DNA of 64,000 nucleotides, taken from assembly GCA_031270475.1 (NCBI GenBank), contig JAISXO010000018.1, positions 105 through 64,104 on the forward strand, in the 5' to 3' direction. Shown piece by piece: positions 1,255 to 51,332 of the stretch (within the stretch, counting starts at the first letter, position 1; the number at the start of each line of letters is the position of its first letter). The notes beneath the pieces are model-generated. The model was not told where the DNA came from. It made no database searches and saw only the letters and a list, made by a program, of their open reading frames with translations. The stretch is from Puniceicoccales bacterium. GTDB taxonomy: Bacteria; Verrucomicrobiota; Verrucomicrobiia; Opitutales; LL51. Made by a program: the position numbers and the translations under genes.

Positions 1255-2502
1255 ATGTCTGAATTGCATCGTGTTGTCATTACGGGCCTAGGAAGTATAA
1301 CTTCGCTCGGATATACTGCTTCCGTTCTCTGGGATAATCTCGTCGCCGGGAAAAGTGGGATCACTCGGATTGCGGCCTTTGATCCGACAACTTATCCCTG
1401 TCAAGTCGGTTCAGAAGTAAAAAATTTCAATCCAGGAGATTATATGGATGTAAAAGATGCCAAACGGAGTGATCGCTTTGCCCATTTCGCTGTCGCCGCT
1501 ACTCAAAATGCAATCCAGGATGCCGCCTTTGACCTAAAACAATTTGATCCCTTTCGCGTGGGAGCCATCATTGGTTCGGGGATCGGTGGCGTCGATACCA
1601 TCCAGAAACAAACCGCACGCTTTCATGGAATGGGTGCGCTCCGGGTATCACCATTCATGATTCCGTCCCTTATCTGCAATATGGCATCGGGAGTTGTTGC
1701 CATTCAATACGGCTTCAAAGGGCCCAATTTTTCCGCTGTAACGGCGTGTTCCTCTTCGGCGCACACGATTGGCGAAGCTTACCATATGCTCCAACTCGGA
1801 AAAGCCGATGCGATCTTTGCGGGAGGAAGTGAGGCGGCACTGATTGGGCTTAGTTTCGCGGGATTTTGTATGATGAAGGCAATGTCGACCCACTTTAATG
1901 GAGAACCGGAGCGGGCTAGTCGGCCTTTCGATGCCCAACGCGACGGATTCGTCATGGGAGAAGGAGCAGGAATTGTGTTATTGGAAACGCTCGAAAGTGC
2001 TCTAGCGCGGCAGGCGAAAATTTACTGCGAAGTCATTGGTTATGCGGCCAATTGCGATGCCTATCATATTACGAGTCCGGATCCCATGGGCAATGGTTTA
2101 GCGAATTGTTTAGAAAGTTTATTACATGAATCGGGAGTAGAGCCGAGCGATGTGGACTACATCAATGCCCATGGAACGTCGACGGAAATGAATGATAAAT
2201 TTGAAACACTTGCCATCAAGCGTGTTTTTAAAGAAAATGCAAAAAAAATAAAAATTAGCTCGACAAAGAGTATGACTGGGCATTTATTGGGAGCGGCAGG
2301 TGGGGTCGAAGCAATTATCTGTGCCAAAGCGATCGAAACCGGCCTCATACCGCCGACGATAAACTACGAAAACCCCGATCCGGATTGCGATTTAGAGTAT
2401 GTTCCCAATACAACAATTCGACAAAATGTAAACGTTGCGATCAGTGAAAACCTCGGATTCGGCGGACACAATGCCGCGTTGATGTTTAGAAAATATTCAT
2501 GA
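1255..2502 (+). CDS. fabF: 3-oxoacyl-ACP synthase II
   Basis: The track ORF starts at 1132 but overlaps acpP. The in-frame ATG at 1255 gives MSELHRVVITGLGSITSLG. Motifs present: TACSSSAH (active-site Cys), NAHGTSTEMND and KSMTGHLLGAAGG. Confidence 0.93.
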   Translation: MSELHRVVITGLGSITSLGYTASVLWDNLVAGKSGITRIAAFDPTTYPCQVGSEVKNFNPGDYMDVKDAKRSDRFAHFAVAATQNAIQDAAFDLKQFDPFRVGAIIGSGIGGVDTIQKQTARFHGMGALRVSPFMIPSLICNMASGVVAIQYGFKGPNFSAVTACSSSAHTIGEAYHMLQLGKADAIFAGGSEAALIGLSFAGFCMMKAMSTHFNGEPERASRPFDAQRDGFVMGEGAGIVLLETLESALARQAKIYCEVIGYAANCDAYHITSPDPMGNGLANCLESLLHESGVEPSDVDYINAHGTSTEMNDKFETLAIKRVFKENAKKIKISSTKSMTGHLLGAAGGVEAIICAKAIETGLIPPTINYENPDPDCDLEYVPNTTIRQNVNVAISENLGFGGHNAALMFRKYS

Positions 2503-4388
2503 TTTTCCGCCTATTTATTTGTGTCGTCGGCTATGTTATTGCCAGACTACCGGTTGTTTGTGTCGCGTTACTTTGCCAATTTTGGGGACAATTTTTCTTT
2601 TTATTTTTTCGGCGACGGCGACGGAGTATACTTTCAAATATTGGTCATGCTTTCCCTGAAAAAACGGAAATGGAATGTAAGGCATTAGCAAAAAAAAGTT
2701 GCACACGCATGATCGAATTGGGACTTTTAGCCATCGCTTTACCCTATTTCCCAAAAAATCGGATTCGGCGATCGTTTCAATTAGACGGCTCTATCGGAGA
2801 ATTTTTTCGCGAAAAAGCGCGCAACAATGGGCCGCGAATCATTTTACTGCCTCATTTTTCGCAGATGGAGGCAATGACAATCATACCATTCCTGGAGGAA
2901 GCGGCGAGGCAAAATGAAATCGGCGTGATTTACCGTCCCTTTAAAAACAAGGCGCTGGAACAATTCATTCGTAAAACGCGTGAAAAATTCGGGTTAAAAC
3001 TTCTCGCGCGCGGATCGGGATTTTTGAGCGCTAAAGAAATTTTAAAACGCAATGGAATCGTCGTCATTTTATTCGATCAAAACGCAAACGAATGGGGGAT
3101 TTTAGCGACATTTTTCGGGCGAATTGCCTCCACAACACCGCTCCCCGACCTCTTATACAAGCATTTTTACTGTCCCATTTACGGACTAATGCCGCAGCGA
3201 TTGGGAACTTTTCAGGCAAAATGTTACGTAGAACACCTTGATTGTAAAAATAAAAAAAACACCACCAACGATTACTGCGTCACACACGCAATGAATGCAT
3301 GGTTGGAACAAAAATTATCATCCGATGATGCCATTTGTTGCGATTGGCTATGGGCGCATAACCGTTGGCACACACACGATCAGGAACACAATTGGCTGAA
3401 TTTATCGCAAAAACGTTGCGCCATCGATTGGTCTAAAACAGATAAAAAAGTAAAAATTTTTATCCGAATGCCCAATTGGTTAGGCGACATTATCATGGCC
3501 GCCCCCCTTGTAAAAGCTGTCCATCAGGCGCGCCCCGACGCCAAAGTAATCCTGCTAGTGCGATCGCATTTTGTCCAGTTCTTAGAAAATTTACATCTTG
3601 CAGATCAAATTTTACCACTTGCTAAAAAAAGTAGAAAATATTATCAGCAGCTTTTTGAATACCGCCAATTGAAACCCGACTTTCTAATACGGCTCGTCAA
3701 TTCAACAACGGCTGATATTGAAACCTTTATTCTCAATGCAACGCACGCGTTTGCGCAACAGTTTCCCAATAAAAAGCGTCCCTGGGGTTCGACACGTATT
3801 TTTATAAATTTTGACAACCTGCAACCCGTTCATCAGGAAAAAACAACACAATTTTTCGCAAAAAAAATGGGCTACCAAAGCGATTGGGATCTCAATCCAT
3901 TCGATCTAAAAATTGCACAATCCAATGCAATCGGTTTGATTTGTGGCAGTGAAAATAGTCCGATAAAACGCTGGCCAATTCCTCATTGGATCGACCTCGT
4001 CACCATACTTTTAAGGCAGACGACCACTGATATTATTCTCTTCGGTACCGCAACGGATGCGGCCATTACACAAGAAATTAAAGGGCATTTTCGCAGTGAA
4101 AATCGTGTCATCGACCGCGCCGGTAAAACAAATCTCTCCGAATTCGCCAATGAAATTGCAACCTGTAAACTCGTAATCGGCAATGATACGGGCGGCGTCC
4201 ACCTCGCCAATTTCCTGGGTATTCCGACGGCTGTCCTCTTCGGCCCAACTAATCCCAACAAAACACGTCCCATTTTCGAGGCACCGGTCCATATTATAAA
4301 ATCGCCAGATAAGAATAATTTCACCGCACTGACATCCAATTTGGTCGCTGAAACACTCACAAATCTCAATTTATTTTCTCTATTATAA
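2499..4388 (+). CDS. Fusion protein: lipid A late acyltransferase (LpxL/HtrB-like) N-half plus family-9 glycosyltransferase (heptosyltransferase-like) C-half
   Basis: 629 aa, with an ATGA overlap onto the fabF stop. The N-half has ILLPHFSQMEAM (HX4E dyad as in LpxL), IYRPFKNKALEQFIRKTREKFG and VILFDQNANEWGILATFFG. The C-half has IRMPNWLGDIIMAAPLVKAVHQARPDAKVILLV and VIGNDTGGVHLANFLGIPTAVLFGPTNP, typical of GT9. Confidence 0.7.
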   Translation: MIFRLFICVVGYVIARLPVVCVALLCQFWGQFFFLFFRRRRRSILSNIGHAFPEKTEMECKALAKKSCTRMIELGLLAIALPYFPKNRIRRSFQLDGSIGEFFREKARNNGPRIILLPHFSQMEAMTIIPFLEEAARQNEIGVIYRPFKNKALEQFIRKTREKFGLKLLARGSGFLSAKEILKRNGIVVILFDQNANEWGILATFFGRIASTTPLPDLLYKHFYCPIYGLMPQRLGTFQAKCYVEHLDCKNKKNTTNDYCVTHAMNAWLEQKLSSDDAICCDWLWAHNRWHTHDQEHNWLNLSQKRCAIDWSKTDKKVKIFIRMPNWLGDIIMAAPLVKAVHQARPDAKVILLVRSHFVQFLENLHLADQILPLAKKSRKYYQQLFEYRQLKPDFLIRLVNSTTADIETFILNATHAFAQQFPNKKRPWGSTRIFINFDNLQPVHQEKTTQFFAKKMGYQSDWDLNPFDLKIAQSNAIGLICGSENSPIKRWPIPHWIDLVTILLRQTTTDIILFGTATDAAITQEIKGHFRSENRVIDRAGKTNLSEFANEIATCKLVIGNDTGGVHLANFLGIPTAVLFGPTNPNKTRPIFEAPVHIIKSPDKNNFTALTSNLVAETLTNLNLFSLL

Positions 4389-4620
4389 TTTTCTTAGAAA
4401 TTTGTTAACATTTCATCGTAATTTTATAGCTTTCCAATGGAGGATTGAGGTATGTCAAGAGATTTAAGAATAATTTCGCCGCACTGACATCCAATTTGGT
4501 CGCTGAAACACTCACAAATCTCAATTTATTTTCTCTATTATAATTTTCTTAGAAATTTATTGACATTTCATCGTAATTTTATAGCCTCCCAATGAAGGAT
4601 TGAGGTATGTCGAGAGATTT
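4311..4620 (+). repeat. Tandem direct duplication, 2 x 155 bp (4311-4465 and 4466-4620)
   Basis: The two units align end to end with a handful of substitutions. Each unit holds the last ~26 codons plus stop of the GT9 fusion gene, the intergenic region, and the RBS plus first 5 codons (MSRDL) of the downstream chaperone gene. Confidence 0.9.
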
Positions 4621-5107
4621 AATGGTACAGGTAATCAATGATTTTGGCCAAGAGATTGGTGCACAATTGGAAGTCGATGACGAAGCCTATTGCTGTTTAG
4701 CAGTGGGAGATGAATTTCAAGTTCATTTAAAATTTAATGAACATTTTAACGGAATAATTTTTTATACTGAACTCGGGGAAGTTCCCAATGTCGGGAAAAA
4801 AGAAGTTCTTCGCCATTACGTCATGCAGAATGGAACTATCGAATCCAATAATTTGACATTTTCCTACGATGAAGAAAGTAAACAATTGGGAATGGCATGC
4901 CTATTGCCCGTAACATTTACGAATTTGGATAACCTAAAAAAAATCCTCGAAAAGTTTATTGAACGCTATCAAAAAGAACACGAAGACATGGGACGATTTC
5001 TACAAGGTGAACTTCCCAAGGATGATATACAATTTGTAGATGATAGCGGTAGTACCAATGAAGCAATTCCCACAAGCGGCATAGATCCACAATTTATGCG
5101 TCTGTGA
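4607..5107 (+). CDS. Type III secretion class I chaperone (CesT/SycE-like)
   Basis: 166 aa, acidic. The layout FGQEIGAQLEVDDEAYCCLAVGDEFQVHLKFNEHFNGIIFYTELGEVP...LTFSYDEESKQLGMACLLP...LEKFIERY matches the class I chaperone template. It is a paralogue-like match to the ORF at 36594..37088. Confidence 0.65.
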   Translation: MSRDLMVQVINDFGQEIGAQLEVDDEAYCCLAVGDEFQVHLKFNEHFNGIIFYTELGEVPNVGKKEVLRHYVMQNGTIESNNLTFSYDEESKQLGMACLLPVTFTNLDNLKKILEKFIERYQKEHEDMGRFLQGELPKDDIQFVDDSGSTNEAIPTSGIDPQFMRL

Positions 5108-5365
5108 AGACCTGACACTAAAATAAAAAATGTAACGCCATATTTAGCCATGGGTAAATTGAAATGTACATATCTTTTGTCGTTAAAGGCAATGTTTTTT
5201 GAACAAAACGCTTATGAAATTGCCATTGAACAAAGTGATCTCAACCTAGAGGATGATACGGCAATCCGAGATTTATTAAAAAAATATAATATTTAGTTCG
5301 ATAGTACGGGCAGCAATCGTTATAACAACAGACTCAGAGCACGATTTTTGAGACCTATACCATAG

Positions 5366-6085: not shown

Positions 6086-6156
6086 TTTAAGGAAATATTT
6101 TTTGAACAAATATACTTGATTTTTGCTTGCCGAATAATGTCTTTGCGTCATCATAG

Positions 6157-27814: not shown

Positions 27815-29194
27815 ATGCAGATTTATTTTTTAGGCATTGGTGGAACAGCAATGGGAAATTTAGCGATCCTGCTCCAAACGCAGGGCCATGAAGTATATGG
27901 AAGCGATCAAAAAATTTACTCGCCGATGTTCGACCTCCTCGCGGAACATAAAATTGTCACCCATATTGGTTATTCTGCTCAACGGCTCGAAAAATTGAAT
28001 CCCGATCTTGTCGTCATCGGCAATGCTATTGCGCGTGGTAACGAGGAAGTGGAATGGTTACTCGATCGCAAAAAAATTCCCTACTGCTCTCTCCCCGAAC
28101 TCATTCATCAGCAAATAATTGGTAAGCGGGATACGATCGTTGTTTCTGGAACCCACGGAAAAACGACTACGACCGCGCTTATCGCCTATTTGCTATCGAT
28201 GAATCGTTGCGACCCCGGTTATTTTATCGGTGGTGTTCCGCTTAATTTCCCGTCTGGCGGGAATTACGGAAAGGAGGACGGTCCATTTATTATTGAGGGC
28301 GATGAGTATGATTCGGCATTTTTTGACAAACGCAGCAAATTTATTCACTATTCTCCAAAGATTCTTGTTATTAATAATATCGAATTGGATCACCTCGATA
28401 TTTTTCGCGATCTACAGGATATTCAACGGACATTTTCCCATGTGATCAAGCTTGTTCCTTCCTGCGGCTATATCGTAGCCAATGGAGATTCGGCGGCAAT
28501 CCACGAGTTATTGCCGGTTCCCTGGACGCGGACTATTTTTGTTGGGAAAGATGGGGGTAACGATTTTATCATCGAGGATGCGAGGTTAACTCAACAGGAT
28601 ACGACTTTTTCACTGGTCAGTAACACAACTAAAATCTCCATTCGGAGTCCTCTTTTTGGCGAACACAATGTGCGCAATGTGGCGATGGCTATTGTTGCGG
28701 CACAGGAGTATCTTGGAACGAATTTAAATAGTGATCTGAGTCATTTTGCGGGCATTAGAAAGCGCCAGGAAATTATTTTTCGAGATGAGAACACGGTAAT
28801 TATCGAGGATTTTGCACATCATCCGACGGCGATTTCGGAAACGATTTGCGCCATTAAACAGGCATTCCCAAGCCATCGACTCATTACTGCCTTTGAGCCG
28901 CGCAGCAATACTGCCTGCTCCAACTGTTTCCAAAAGGATTTTATTGGTGCTTTTGAGGGCAGCGACGAAGTTTACATCGCGGAAGTTTACAAAAATAGAG
29001 CCCAGAGTTTGGATATCCACAAGCTCGCCCGAGATATCCGCTATTGTCCCGCACAGCCCGTCGACATTTCCAGCATTAAAGCCACTTTCCCGGGAAAAAT
29101 TAATCGCGAAAAGCAAGTTTTTCTCTTCCTATCCAACGGTGATTTTTCTAACCTTGCGCAATATTTAAAGGATAGTGTCAATTCGAAATTCTGA
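27815..29194 (+). CDS. mpl: UDP-N-acetylmuramate:L-alanyl-gamma-D-glutamyl-meso-diaminopimelate ligase (Mpl-like Mur ligase)
   Basis: MQIYFLGIGGTAMGNLAILL, VSGTHGKTTTTALIAYLL (P-loop), IIEGDEYDSAFFDKRSKF and NNIELDHLDIF together give an Mpl-type rather than MurC-type pattern. Confidence 0.85.
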   Translation: MQIYFLGIGGTAMGNLAILLQTQGHEVYGSDQKIYSPMFDLLAEHKIVTHIGYSAQRLEKLNPDLVVIGNAIARGNEEVEWLLDRKKIPYCSLPELIHQQIIGKRDTIVVSGTHGKTTTTALIAYLLSMNRCDPGYFIGGVPLNFPSGGNYGKEDGPFIIEGDEYDSAFFDKRSKFIHYSPKILVINNIELDHLDIFRDLQDIQRTFSHVIKLVPSCGYIVANGDSAAIHELLPVPWTRTIFVGKDGGNDFIIEDARLTQQDTTFSLVSNTTKISIRSPLFGEHNVRNVAMAIVAAQEYLGTNLNSDLSHFAGIRKRQEIIFRDENTVIIEDFAHHPTAISETICAIKQAFPSHRLITAFEPRSNTACSNCFQKDFIGAFEGSDEVYIAEVYKNRAQSLDIHKLARDIRYCPAQPVDISSIKATFPGKINREKQVFLFLSNGDFSNLAQYLKDSVNSKF

Positions 29195-29690
29195 ACCGTA
29201 TCGCTTTGTGTGACACAGCCCGTCGATATTTCCAGTATTAAAGCCACTTTATCGGAGAAAATTAATCGCGAAAAGCAAGTTTTTCTCTTCCTATCCAACG
29301 GTGATTTTTCTAACCTTGCACAATATTTAAAGGATAGTGTCAATTCGAATTTCTGAACCGTATCGCTTTGTGTGACACAGCCCGTCGATATTTCCAGCAT
29401 TAAAGCCATTTTATCGGGAAAAATTAATCGCGAAAAACAAGTTTTTCTCTTCCTATCTAACGGTGATTTTTCTAACCTTGCGCAATATTTGAAGGATAGT
29501 GTCAATTCGAAATTCTGAACCGTATCACTTTGTGTGACACAACCCGCCTATATTTCCAGCATTAAAGCCACTTTCCCGGGAAAAATTAATCGCGAAAAAC
29601 AAGTTTTTTTCTTCCTATCCAACGGTGATTTTTTCTAACCTTGCACAATATTTGAAGGATAGTGCAATTTTGGAATTGCATCGCAAAAAG
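29052..29690 (+). repeat. 162-bp tandem repeat array, about 4 copies, derived from the mpl 3' end
   Basis: Units lie at 29052-29213 (native mpl tail plus stop), 29214-29375, 29376-29537 and 29538 to about 29690 (degenerate, with indels). The period is 162 bp (54 codons). TGA stops recur in phase at 29192, 29354 and 29516. Confidence 0.92.
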
Positions 29691-29712
29691 ATCGGATTAG
29701 CATTCGGTTGAT

Positions 29713-30762
29713 ATGAATAAGCGTATTCAAGATTTCATTGCACATGATAAGGATAAATTGGTTGAGCATAAATGCCGAACCATTTCAAAAGAGACATTGC
29801 ATCTCCCGGGATCGGATTTTATCGATCGCGTCTTTGTCCATACCGATCGCTCCCAACGCGTTCTCAATCACCTGGCGTGGATAGCACGTACAGGACGGCT
29901 CGCAGGGACGGGATATACATCAATTTTGCCCGTAGATCAGGGTATCGAACACTCAGCGGCAGCGAGCTTCGCACCGAATCCTATCTATTTCGATCCAGAA
30001 AATATCGTTAAACTCGCTCTCGAAGGAGGTTGTAGTGCGGTCGCATCGACGCTCGGCGTTTTAGGGAGTTTAAGTCGGAAGTATTCCCACAGAATTCCAT
30101 TTGTCGTCAAACTGAATCACAACGAGCTTCTGACCTATCCCAACAAATTCGATCAAGTTTATTTTGGCCAGGTGGAACAAGCCTACGAAATGGGTGCAGC
30201 AGCGATTGGAGCGACGATTTATTTTGGGTCCGAGGAATCCACTCGCCAAATTCAGGAAACAAGTACGGCATTTCAGTTAGCACATGAGCTAGGATTAGTA
30301 ACGATTCTGTGGTGTTACCTGCGCAATCCCGCATTCAAAGCGGATAAGGATTATCATACGGCAGCGGATTTGACTGGCCAGGCGAATCATATTGGCGTGA
30401 CCATCGAGGCAGATATCATTAAACAAAAACTACCCACGAATAACGGAGGGTTTAAAGCGGTTAATTTCAGTAAAACCCACGAAAAAGTTTACAGCGAACT
30501 GACAACAAATCATCCGATTGATTTGACGCGCTATCAAGTTGCGAATTGCTACATGGGACGTATGGGACTAATTAATTCCGGTGGAGCTGCAGGGGAGGAC
30601 GACTTTAACGAGGCGATTCAAACAGCAATTATCAATAAGCGAGCTGGAGGTTCAGGATTAATTTGTGGTCGCAAGGCATTTCAACGCCCCATGAAAGACG
30701 GCATCGAATTGCTCAACACAATCCAGGATGTTTACCTCGAACAATCGATTACGATTGCTTAA
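29713..30762 (+). CDS. fbaB: Class I fructose-bisphosphate aldolase (FbaB/DhnA type)
   Basis: 349 aa. [20 protein letters not shown]...[11 protein letters not shown]...[11 protein letters not shown]...IIKQKLP is colinear with DhnA-type aldolases. Confidence 0.85.
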
Positions 30763-49371: not shown

Positions 49372-49561
49372 TCTACACTTTTCATTACGACTTTAATCGC
49401 AATACTTTCGGTCCAGAATATATGTCAGACTAAAAGAAATTTACATTGTAATTGTAAAACTTTTAATAAAAATGGGCCATGCCAACAGAATCGTTCCCAT
49501 GCAACGCCCCTGACCTAGATGGGCCTCCGAAAGCTAACACTAGGAAGAGATGTGGATTTAT

Positions 49562-49660
49562 CGATTGTCGTTAGCCAACCATGCCCAGGAATCGCGTCTC
49601 ATCGGGCAGCGCATATAACTTTTCTCAGATACTCTTTTATTGGTATTCCGTTGGAAAATA
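49562..49660 (-). repeat. Degenerate duplicate of the 3' part of the MBL-fold gene, placed just after its stop
   Basis: 49562-49636 matches 49706-49785 (offset 144 bp), which encodes ...REKLYALSDETQVIPGHGWLTTI. The two differ by a 4-nt indel and a few substitutions. Weaker similarity continues to about 49660. Confidence 0.8.
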
Positions 49661-49661
49661 G

Positions 49662-50354
49662 CTACTTCCTCGGTCGAACATAAGGATTTTCGTTCTTTTC
49701 CTTACCGATTGTCGTTAGCCAACCATGCCCAGGAATCACCTGCGTCTCATCGGACAGCGCATATAACTTTTCCCGGATATTCTTAAACAAAGCATGCTTA
49801 TTGCCACCCGGAAAATCCGAGCGCCCAACTGTTCCACTGAAAAGCGTGTCCCCAACGAAACAAATACCAATATCCTTGAAATAATATGCCGCTCCACCCT
49901 CCGTATGGCCCGAAATCCATAGTGTCTGAACCGATAATTCACACACTTCGAAACGTGCCCCATCGTTCAAAACATGGTCAACTTTACAGGATTCAATTGG
50001 AAAATCTGCGGACAATAATGGTTCTGCACGTTCCACATGTTCGATAAAAGGGACATCGAGCGCATAGGCATACACTTCAAGCCCCCTTTCGCGAAAAATC
50101 GACGCATTGCCAATATGATCCCAATGATAATGCGTAATGAGTAGCGCTTTCAATTGAATTTTCCTTTCCATTGCGATAGAAAAAATTGCTTCCGAAGATT
50201 CGGGTGGTGCATCGATCACGATTCCTTCCCCCTGCCGCACGACGAGACCAACATTCGTCCGCAAAGGCCCTAAATGGTATACATCTACCGTAATGTCCAA
50301 TTGGTTGTAAATATTCACCCCACTAGAAGATATTAATCGTGGATTTTCGTTCAA
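49662..50354 (-). CDS. MBL-fold metallo-hydrolase (glyoxalase II/YcbL-like)
   Basis: LLITHYHWDHIGN (HxHxDH), WISGHTEGG, GRSDFPGGN and VIPGHGWLTTIGKEKNENPY. Confidence 0.8.
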   Translation of the reverse strand: MNENPRLISSSGVNIYNQLDITVDVYHLGPLRTNVGLVVRQGEGIVIDAPPESSEAIFSIAMERKIQLKALLITHYHWDHIGNASIFRERGLEVYAYALDVPFIEHVERAEPLLSADFPIESCKVDHVLNDGARFEVCELSVQTLWISGHTEGGAAYYFKDIGICFVGDTLFSGTVGRSDFPGGNKHALFKNIREKLYALSDETQVIPGHGWLTTIGKEKNENPYVRPRK

Positions 50355-50489: not shown

Positions 50490-51332
50490 ATGAGTAAAAA
50501 TTATTATATTAAAAATAGATTACTAAAAAATATCGCACTCGGAATCTTTTTTCCGGGCATTTTTGTGGGAAGTACCGATGCCAGTTTCAGCCAAGCTCAG
50601 AAGCATCGTACTGCCGCAAAACCGCCAGATATGGAACTATCACTCGAGGAACGATCACTCAACGAGGAGCTATTTCAGGCCCTAAAAGAGTCAGAGCCGG
50701 ATCTTGGCAAAATAGAACAATTGCTCGCCCAAGGTGCCAATCCTGACGCACGAAATCAATACAACGATACCCCATTGTTTCATGCAAAAAATGCAGAAAT
50801 AACTGCCCTACTACTCAATGCGGGAGCTAACGCTGACGCACGAAATGACTGCAACAATACCCCATTGTTTCATGCAGAGAATGCAGCAATAACTGCCCTA
50901 CTACTCAATGCGGGAGCCGACGTAGACGCACGAAATCAATACAACGATACCCCATTGTTTCATGCAAAGAATGCAGAAATAACTGACCTACTACTTAATG
51001 CGGGAGCTGACGTAAACGCACAAAGTAACTTGGGCGATACTCCATTACATGTTGCTTTATATCATTTTCAAAAAGACCCAAAACAGATAGAAAAATTATT
51101 GCAAAGAGGCGCAAAAATAGACGTAGCAAGCCGATCTGTAGACCATCCAAAAGGCAATACGCCATTGTTTATAGTACAATGGGCCGCCCAAAAAGGCCTT
51201 CGAAGGCTTCGCACCAGTCTCTTCCCTCATACTCCTTACAAACTGACCGATGACACTCGCATAGCATACGCTAAACTTCTACCGCTATTTTTTCTCCCTC
51301 CTAATCTCTGGCAGAACTTGAATAGCAATTAA
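50490..51332 (+). CDS. Ankyrin-repeat protein with N-terminal signal-like segment
   Basis: 280 aa. IALGIFFPGIFVGSTDASFS leader, followed by repeated DARNQYNDTPLFHAKNAEITALLLNAGA units. Confidence 0.8.
   Translation: MSKNYYIKNRLLKNIALGIFFPGIFVGSTDASFSQAQKHRTAAKPPDMELSLEERSLNEELFQALKESEPDLGKIEQLLAQGANPDARNQYNDTPLFHAKNAEITALLLNAGANADARNDCNNTPLFHAENAAITALLLNAGADVDARNQYNDTPLFHAKNAEITDLLLNAGADVNAQSNLGDTPLHVALYHFQKDPKQIEKLLQRGAKIDVASRSVDHPKGNTPLFIVQWAAQKGLRRLRTSLFPHTPYKLTDDTRIAYAKLLPLFFLPPNLWQNLNSN
50745..51014 (+). repeat. Intragenic 90-bp (30-codon) tandem repeats, 3 units
   Basis: GACGCACGAAAT recurs at 50745, 50835 and 50925. Units 1 and 3 are nearly identical at the DNA level. Confidence 0.9.

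Follow-up and report, generated by a model that had tools for sequence, protein, structure and literature searches.

Microhomology-mediated tandem duplication by replication misalignment is a general mechanism in bacteria (Lovett 2004, cited in PMC6547736). In Ehrlichia ruminantium, intergenic regions expand and contract by tandem units of about 150 bp, and slippage has been proposed as the cause (PMC10710844 and PMC6547736, citing Collins 2005 and Frutos 2006). In Wolbachia, the variable-number tandem repeats (VNTRs) VNTR-141 and VNTR-105, which are intergenic, have been explained by slipped-strand mispairing together with concerted evolution (PMC3287509). Here we describe a tandem array of 162-bp units, derived from the 3' end of mpl, that lies between mpl and fbaB in a 64,000-nucleotide stretch of a Puniceicoccales contig (Verrucomicrobiota; JAISXO010000018.1), to which we refer as the window. 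We consider it probable that the array is non-functional DNA, which arose by neutral tandem duplication of the mpl 3' end through slippage and unequal recombination, with selection acting as a filter. The mpl array is a genuine and well-resolved case of an ordinary process.

As far as the cited accounts of E. ruminantium extend, the mpl array resembles that system in its host-associated setting, in being non-coding, in a unit of about 150 bp and in lengthening an intergenic region; genes for type III secretion system (T3SS) chaperones and ankyrin genes are present both in the window and in its relatives. It differs in belonging to the Verrucomicrobiota, and in that both the source of its units, the 3' end of the adjacent gene, and a single-copy ancestral state in relatives can be identified. 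The Ehrlichia system is, in the same accounts, defined by changes in copy number from strain to strain, whereas here one assembly and about 100 kb were surveyed. The Wolbachia arrays are similar in that they have periods of 105-141 bp and a few units, which share high identity and some of which bear internal deletions. Wolbachia units carry hairpins that are thought to trigger slippage, whereas none occur in the mpl array, and the units there are not described as copies of a neighbouring gene end.

Structure of the array between mpl and fbaB

The mpl gene (27815-29194, plus strand), which serves cell-wall recycling, encodes a UDP-N-acetylmuramate:L-alanyl-gamma-D-glutamyl-meso-diaminopimelate ligase of 459 aa, and its open reading frame (ORF) is complete when the first copy of the repeat is used. 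The ORF of fbaB (29713-30762, plus strand) encodes a 349-aa protein, a class I fructose-bisphosphate aldolase (NF006707, 636 bits against a cut-off of 327), and the gap between the two genes in the window is 518 nt. Tandem Repeats Finder reported a repeat at 29052-29669 with a period of 162, 3.8 copies, 93% matches, 0% indels and a score of 1066, which confirms the array of about three extra copies described in an initial annotation made from the sequence alone. A separate repeat search placed the copy starts at 29052, 29214 and 29376 and could trace a fourth copy to 29677. The start-to-start distances are 162, 162 and 163, that is, the copies are arranged head to tail with a constant period, and they are 88-95% identical to each other over 139 nt, far above chance.

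Alignment of the four copies showed that units 1 to 3 each consist of a 139-nt segment of mpl, designated S, and a 23-nt junction, designated f, with the sequence CTGAACCGTATCGCTTTGTGTGA. The unit had previously been described as the mpl 3' end, its stop codon and a few following nucleotides; the 3' end and the stop stand, and the precise division is the 139-nt segment plus the 23-nt junction. Copy 1 of S (29052-29190, plus strand), delimited by the repeat search and the alignment, provides the functional 3' end of the mpl coding sequence (QPVDISS...DSVNSKF). The junction that follows it (29191-29213) provides the present stop codon of mpl, a TGA at 29192-29194, and contains an in-frame GTG at 29210. 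Within the window this junction is found only at its three places in the array, the other two being 29353-29375 and 29515-29537, and its pattern gave no match among the metagenome contigs searched.

Unit 2 (29214-29375, plus strand) and unit 3 (29376-29537, plus strand) again comprise S and f and are 94% and 95% identical to copy 1, respectively. TGA codons in the mpl frame occur at 29192, 29354 and 29516, as the initial annotation had stated together with the correct conceptual peptides, and each is followed 15 nt later by an in-frame GTG. Two of these GTG codons open ORFs of 48 codons (29210-29356 in unit 2 and 29372-29518 in unit 3), both of which remain intact. Copy 4 (29538-29677, plus strand) consists of S only, is the most diverged (88-91%) and occupies the ancestral position. 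The indels that had been noticed in this last copy are an additional T in the T-run at 29629-29634 and the loss of one base between 29664 and 29665.

Repeat-like sequence can be followed as far as 29677, leaving 35 nt to the fbaB ATG and not about 23 nt as first reported, and these 35 nt are not part of the repeat. They belong to a remnant of the ancestral C-terminal tail of mpl (29678-29716, plus strand), which aligns with the mpl tails of the related loci L002, L162 and L161_B. The TGA of the remnant (29714-29716) overlaps the fbaB ATG (29713) as ATGA. From 29663 to 29716 there is an open frame of 17 codons, which lacks a usable start.

The best NCBIfam match of Mpl is TIGR01081, which covers residues 3-454 of the protein and positions 2-446 of the 448 in the profile, with a score of 333 bits that lies below the curated cut-off of 388.7. 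Because this match reaches residue 454 of 459, Mpl has lost nothing conserved. The protein now ends in SVNSKF*, and the tails of its relatives are variable, for example SVNSGLPRKKIGLASGPYE*. A protein named Mur ligase in a Puniceicoccales metagenome-assembled genome (MAG) is 100% identical to the Mpl of the window (P0001, one member).

The period of 162 bp, or exactly 54 codons, keeps every unit in the mpl frame. This looks like a coincidence, for which the prior chance is one in three, and the periods of 155, 151 and 143 found at other loci are not multiples of three. On the reverse strand, an ORF of 154 codons at 29041-29505 was considered as a gene and rejected, as it had no family match and is merely the stop-free frame of the unit; it is likely a false gene call.

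Origin and age of the array

In eight of eight related Puniceicoccales loci mpl abuts or overlaps fbaB without any repeat. The spacing is -8 nt in L002, 26 nt in L001, 37 nt in L162 and L163, 27 nt in L164, 25 nt in L165 and L166, and 31 nt in L167. An enlarged gap was found only in the window (518 nt) and in the related locus L161 (300 nt), in both cases by way of copies of the mpl 3' end, and the gene order fabH-like gene, mpl, fbaB is intact in all relatives. Since mpl abuts fbaB in the eight related loci, the array is a derived insertion of mpl sequence. The mpl tails of the relatives can be aligned with the 35 nt past copy 4 up to the fbaB start, where these 35 nt end in ATGA; they are therefore the old tail, so that the whole spacer is derived from mpl, as had been claimed, and the ancestral gene end is represented by the distal copy. 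These alignments show that the ancestral mpl reached or overlapped the start codon of fbaB, and the two genes were therefore presumably co-transcribed and translationally coupled.

In the window, fbaB begins 518 nt past the last translated upstream codon, and it must therefore start translation independently. Most likely, fbaB is still transcribed by read-through from mpl. It had been argued that the fbaB promoter must lie inside the repeat. However, a scan of the array found 0 sigma-70-like promoters (and 0 intrinsic terminators), and the relatives have no room for an intergenic promoter, which makes co-transcription with mpl the simpler reading.

L161 is the closest relative of the window (Mpl 84% identical) and comes from an independent sample. 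The two are sisters in a neighbour-joining tree of Mpl, also when the duplicated region is left out. A scan of metagenome proteins returned only relatives at no more than 43% identity and no conspecific. Within the 300-nt spacer of L161 lies a second, decayed copy of this mpl segment, and the ancestral tail comes after it. Copies A and B of L161 are 76% identical, compared with 88-95% among the window copies, and the copy number is about 2, decayed, compared with 3.8. The identity of 76% fits an old age of the duplication; identity at third codon positions between the window and L161 genomes is 66%.

The beginnings of the junk copies carry a shared mark. The L161 junk copy starts with GAGATATCTGCTTTGT (TATCTGCTTTGT), the window junction reads TATC-GCTTTGT, and the functional copies all read GATAT(C/T)CGCTATTGT. 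In other words, GCTTTGT stands at the start of the junk copies of both the window and L161 where every functional copy has GCTATTGT, and the same one base has been lost at the same distance from S in both. Local alignment of the window junction with the L161 junk copy gave a P value of about 0.01. The junction also resembles the mpl sequence TATCCGCTATTGT at the same collinear position, with a P value of about 0.1 against the window's own mpl. On the strength of these alignments, the 23-nt junction is probably a deletion-ridden relic of the mpl sequence upstream of S. The decayed copy at the same site in L161, together with the shared one-base loss, suggests that the duplication probably predates the split of the window and L161 lineages. 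As to microhomology at the breakpoints of the mpl duplication, the mpl junction is too old to show it, and L161 hints at CAT/AAGC at the HKL codons of mpl and at the fbaB start. The decayed mpl copy of L161 also holds a 77-nt stretch (L161 3560-3636) that is not significantly unit-like (P = 0.13) and has GAAGAGTCC on both flanks.

Among the window copies, variants are shared in a mosaic manner, by copies 3 and 4, 2 and 4, 1 and 4, and 2 and 3, and no single order of duplication accounts for them. The junction is strongly diverged from its apparent source in mpl, whereas S stays uniform. A uniform S, a diverged junction and mosaic variants are together the signature of later re-amplification and of gene conversion limited to S. 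The pattern of concerted evolution in the window array is thus directly visible in the alignment, and we infer the steps that led to it.

In the common ancestor with L161, slippage or a template switch would have duplicated roughly 190 bp, up to the start of fbaB. The proximal copy would have kept mpl whole, and the distal copy, joined to the old tail and to fbaB, would have turned into junk. In the sister lineage the junk copy would just have decayed. In the window lineage small deletions would have trimmed the junction to 23 nt, which now gives mpl its stop codon, and the copies would have increased to four through replication slippage or unequal recombination among them. Gene conversion would then hold the 139-nt core at 88-95% identity, with the junction staying diverged. 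Purifying selection would remove duplications that disrupt genes; in an arrangement of this kind the first copy would complete the upstream gene and the last would serve the downstream one. Duplications that span a gene border leave both genes whole and so would survive in a compact genome, which would result in an apparent targeting of gene ends.

Related duplications in the window and its relatives

Two further duplications of gene 3' ends had been noted in the window, and both were found, at 4310-4622 and at 49558-49784. The first of these (plus strand) was reported by Tandem Repeats Finder as a 155-bp unit in 2.0 copies that are 95% identical, and the relatives are single-copy. The unit comprises the last 26 codons of a gene for a 629-aa LpxL-like/heptosyltransferase fusion protein, the whole 63-nt spacer, and the ribosome-binding site and first 13 nt of a gene for a CesT-type chaperone, and its borders have a 3-nt TAA microhomology. 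The spacer at the site of this duplication is single and 63 nt long in L170 and L171. In the distal unit the ancestral TTGACA, which is also present in relatives, and ATGTCG are retained, whereas the proximal unit has TTAACA and ATGTCA, suggesting that each copy decays in the part that is not needed. The proximal copy creates a mini-ORF of 11 codons (ATG at 4453). The 629-aa ORF itself (2499-4388) has an N-terminal half like lipid A lauroyl-acyltransferase and a C-terminal half like heptosyltransferase, and the fusion is kept in L170 and L171 (637-638 aa).

The young event at 4310, with exactly 2.0 copies and the TAA microhomology, is as expected from replication misalignment, and the older arrays fit later unequal exchange. 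However, that mechanism predicts neither the rate, which appears to exceed that of other Verrucomicrobiota loci about 10 times, nor the clustering of sizes at 143-162 bp.

The second of the two further events (49558-49784, minus strand), detected by the repeat search, concerns an MBL-fold hydrolase gene (49662-50354, minus strand), whose 3' end is copied just past its stop codon. The copy is offset by 144-148 nt and has 83 nt of 89% identity, which include an indel of 4 nt. Judged by the proteins of relatives, the gene-proximal copy holds the ancestral tail. L169 (3158-3289), which comes from the same sample as L161, contains a 31-nt remnant at the MBL site (27 of 31 positions match, P < 0.001); no remnant was found at the site in L168. 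The MBL duplication, too, predates the split and has been kept fresh in the window lineage only.

Two events were found in the relatives. The fabH-mpl spacer of L161 (L161 1544-2052) holds the fabH-like gene's 3' end four times, in copies of which one is functional and three are decayed, with a period of 122-143. The distal copy holds the ancestral tail, and the corresponding spacer of the window is plain and 63 nt long. In L002 (L002 2425-2664), a duplication with an offset of 151 bp, in which 89 nt are 82% identical, lies upstream of atpA in a divergent, AT-rich promoter region, and no gene end is involved.

We counted as events near-tandem repeats with stops in all frames and an identity of at least 80%. 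There were five such events in 96 kb of this clade and seven in 1,387 kb of distant control loci (Fisher P = 6e-4). The rate in the clade is thus about 10 times that of the controls, and P is 0.013 without the mpl event that prompted the comparison. The periods in the clade are 155, 162, 144, 151 and 143, compared with 117-632 in the controls (Mann-Whitney P = 0.019). In three more distant members of the clade 0 events were found in 64 kb, suggesting that the tendency is confined to the window/L161 group, perhaps with L002. A recurrent process that amplifies gene termini had been proposed from the window alone; the excess of events partly bears out the recurrence, but a process specific to gene termini is not supported, given the 151-bp case of L002.

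A sensitive scan for older relics covered the 34 window spacers with a length of 80 nt or more and found copies of gene ends in 3 of them; it returned only the three known events and one weak hit. This hit is a 25-nt direct similarity (z = 6.1) between 5183-5207, in a 681-nt spacer after the chaperone gene, and 6086-6110, about 900 nt downstream.

Repeats of other kinds were also observed. An ORF at 50490-51332, which encodes an ankyrin-like protein of 280 aa with a hydrophobic N-terminus, contains at 50743-51046 an in-frame 90-bp (30-aa) repeat in 3.1 copies that are 86-88% identical. This is a protein-domain repeat and not a gene-border event; more ankyrin genes occur near it and in the relatives. 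In two distant Verrucomicrobiia loci (L039 7375-7541 and L114 5375-5541), an 87-bp repeat in 1.9 copies, 84% identical and with one frame open, begins 25 nt past the end of the mpl match.

Competing explanations and biological meaning

The strongest competitor of the ancient duplication proposed above is an independent, recent duplication in the window lineage at a duplication-prone site, in which case the L161 copy would be a separate event and the 23-nt junction would be filler DNA from the breakpoint. The window copies, at 88-95% identity, do look young, the similarity of the junction to mpl is weak (P about 0.1), and duplications are frequent enough in this lineage to make a second event at one site conceivable. 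However, the window and L161 are sister lineages, both of their junk copies carry the change from GCTATTGT to GCTTTGT at the same collinear position, and the MBL locus shows the same picture of a shared duplication, with decay in the sister and a fresh copy in the window. We therefore regard an independent origin as unlikely.

A selected function of the array is less probable still. The array might multiply an fbaB promoter located within the mpl 3' end, it might uncouple fbaB from mpl, or the 48-codon GTG ORFs might be translated, for example so that ribosomes prevent Rho termination. Units 2 and 3 keep these ORFs, with a GTG 15 nt past each TGA, and the window copies have stayed similar while that of the sister decayed. 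The untranslated stretch is, moreover, somewhat richer in C than in G (C/G ratio 1.23, compared with 0.99 in mpl), which makes Rho polarity a real risk. Against this, no promoter-like site and no structure were found in the array. The idea that a structured RNA, a terminator or a riboswitch lies between the genes was considered and rejected: the RNA of the untranslated stretch is less stable than shuffled sequence (z = +1.38), there was no Rfam match at E <= 1, no hairpin was found in the spacer, and there is no terminator-like site.

Coding constraint on units 2 and 3 was likewise rejected. In the comparison of copies 1 to 3, the raw counts of 6 synonymous and 5 non-synonymous changes were suggestive, and the signal vanished once changes were assigned to copies. 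The codon changes private to copies 2 and 3 comprise 2 synonymous and 5 non-synonymous ones, as expected for neutral DNA, whereas the differences that involve the functional copy 1 are all synonymous (4 of 4), as expected if copy 1 alone is under selection and sometimes exchanges sequence with its neighbours. In addition, copy 4, which adjoins fbaB, carries a frameshift; a decayed copy suffices for the sister lineage, and the eight relatives do well with none.

That the array is an assembly artefact, a false array built from strain variants or a graph cycle during short-read metagenome assembly, is very improbable. The source is indeed a MAG contig of 71,395 bp, and it is the single assembly of this organism. 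However, exact repeats within the array reach 62 nt at most, so that any longer k-mer gives a single path. Variants specific to individual units tag both sides of each unit junction, which means that reads must physically contain these junctions, and the independent assembly of the sister lineage has a homologous duplication.

Least credible of all are a mobile-element footprint and programmed stop-codon readthrough. Integrative elements duplicate the 3' end of a gene at their attachment site, as islands in tRNA or tmRNA genes do, and often target gene 3' ends and bring a replacement end with them. The mpl locus resembles such a site in having direct repeats of a gene 3' end downstream of an intact gene. 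The initial annotation listed rounds of integration and excision at a 3'-end attachment site as a candidate, but the four mpl copies abut head to tail with no DNA between them, the local list of ORFs contains no integrase, and the synteny is uninterrupted in all relatives. Readthrough adding 54-aa modules, or reserve gene ends as had also been suggested, would agree with a period of exactly 54 codons and stops in phase; both ideas fail on the frameshift of copy 4, the decay of the sister copy, the 2:5 ratio of private changes, and other events that have periods not divisible by three, one of them away from gene ends.

Neutral duplication of the mpl 3' end in the ancestor of the window and L161 is thus the reading that we prefer, and several points weigh against it. 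The homology between the junction and mpl is weak by itself (P about 0.1 for the window's own mpl and about 0.01 for L161), and there may have been two separate duplications at one site. The promoter scan used only the sigma-70 consensus, which may not fit Verrucomicrobiota. The high identity in the window at two loci where the sister copies have decayed could reflect selection and not conversion. In each of the four gene-border events the weight lies on the side of 3' coding sequence, which neutral filtering does not account for in full; this weighting is suggestive and may reflect selection against duplicated translation starts, and the numbers are small. Finally, there is one assembly of the organism, so that copy-number variation, the hallmark of an active array, is not visible.

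A bolder proposal, which we put forward only tentatively, is that this sub-lineage has an active, size-constrained process of duplication of about 150 bp, like the one described as peculiar to E. ruminantium, and that this process builds intergenic DNA from gene ends. Conversion from the live gene would keep the dead copies fresh, and these would store older alleles of the 3' end. If this were true, the window would provide a convergent case in a distant phylum, and one in which the birth of a spacer from formerly overlapping genes can be traced.

For the mpl locus itself, the single-copy outgroup, the decayed two-copy sister and the homogenised four-copy array show stepwise how overlapping, coupled genes gained a spacer of 518 nt. 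In-frame repeats that keep their stop codons beside a gene can arise without function, and ORFs within such arrays, such as the two 48-codon GTG ORFs and the 154-codon reverse-strand ORF described here, are annotation traps. Selection that filters random duplications can mimic a preference for gene termini. Should the bias towards about 150 bp extend across the genome, it would connect the unexplained plasticity of the Ehrlichia ruminantium genome with this verrucomicrobial lineage.

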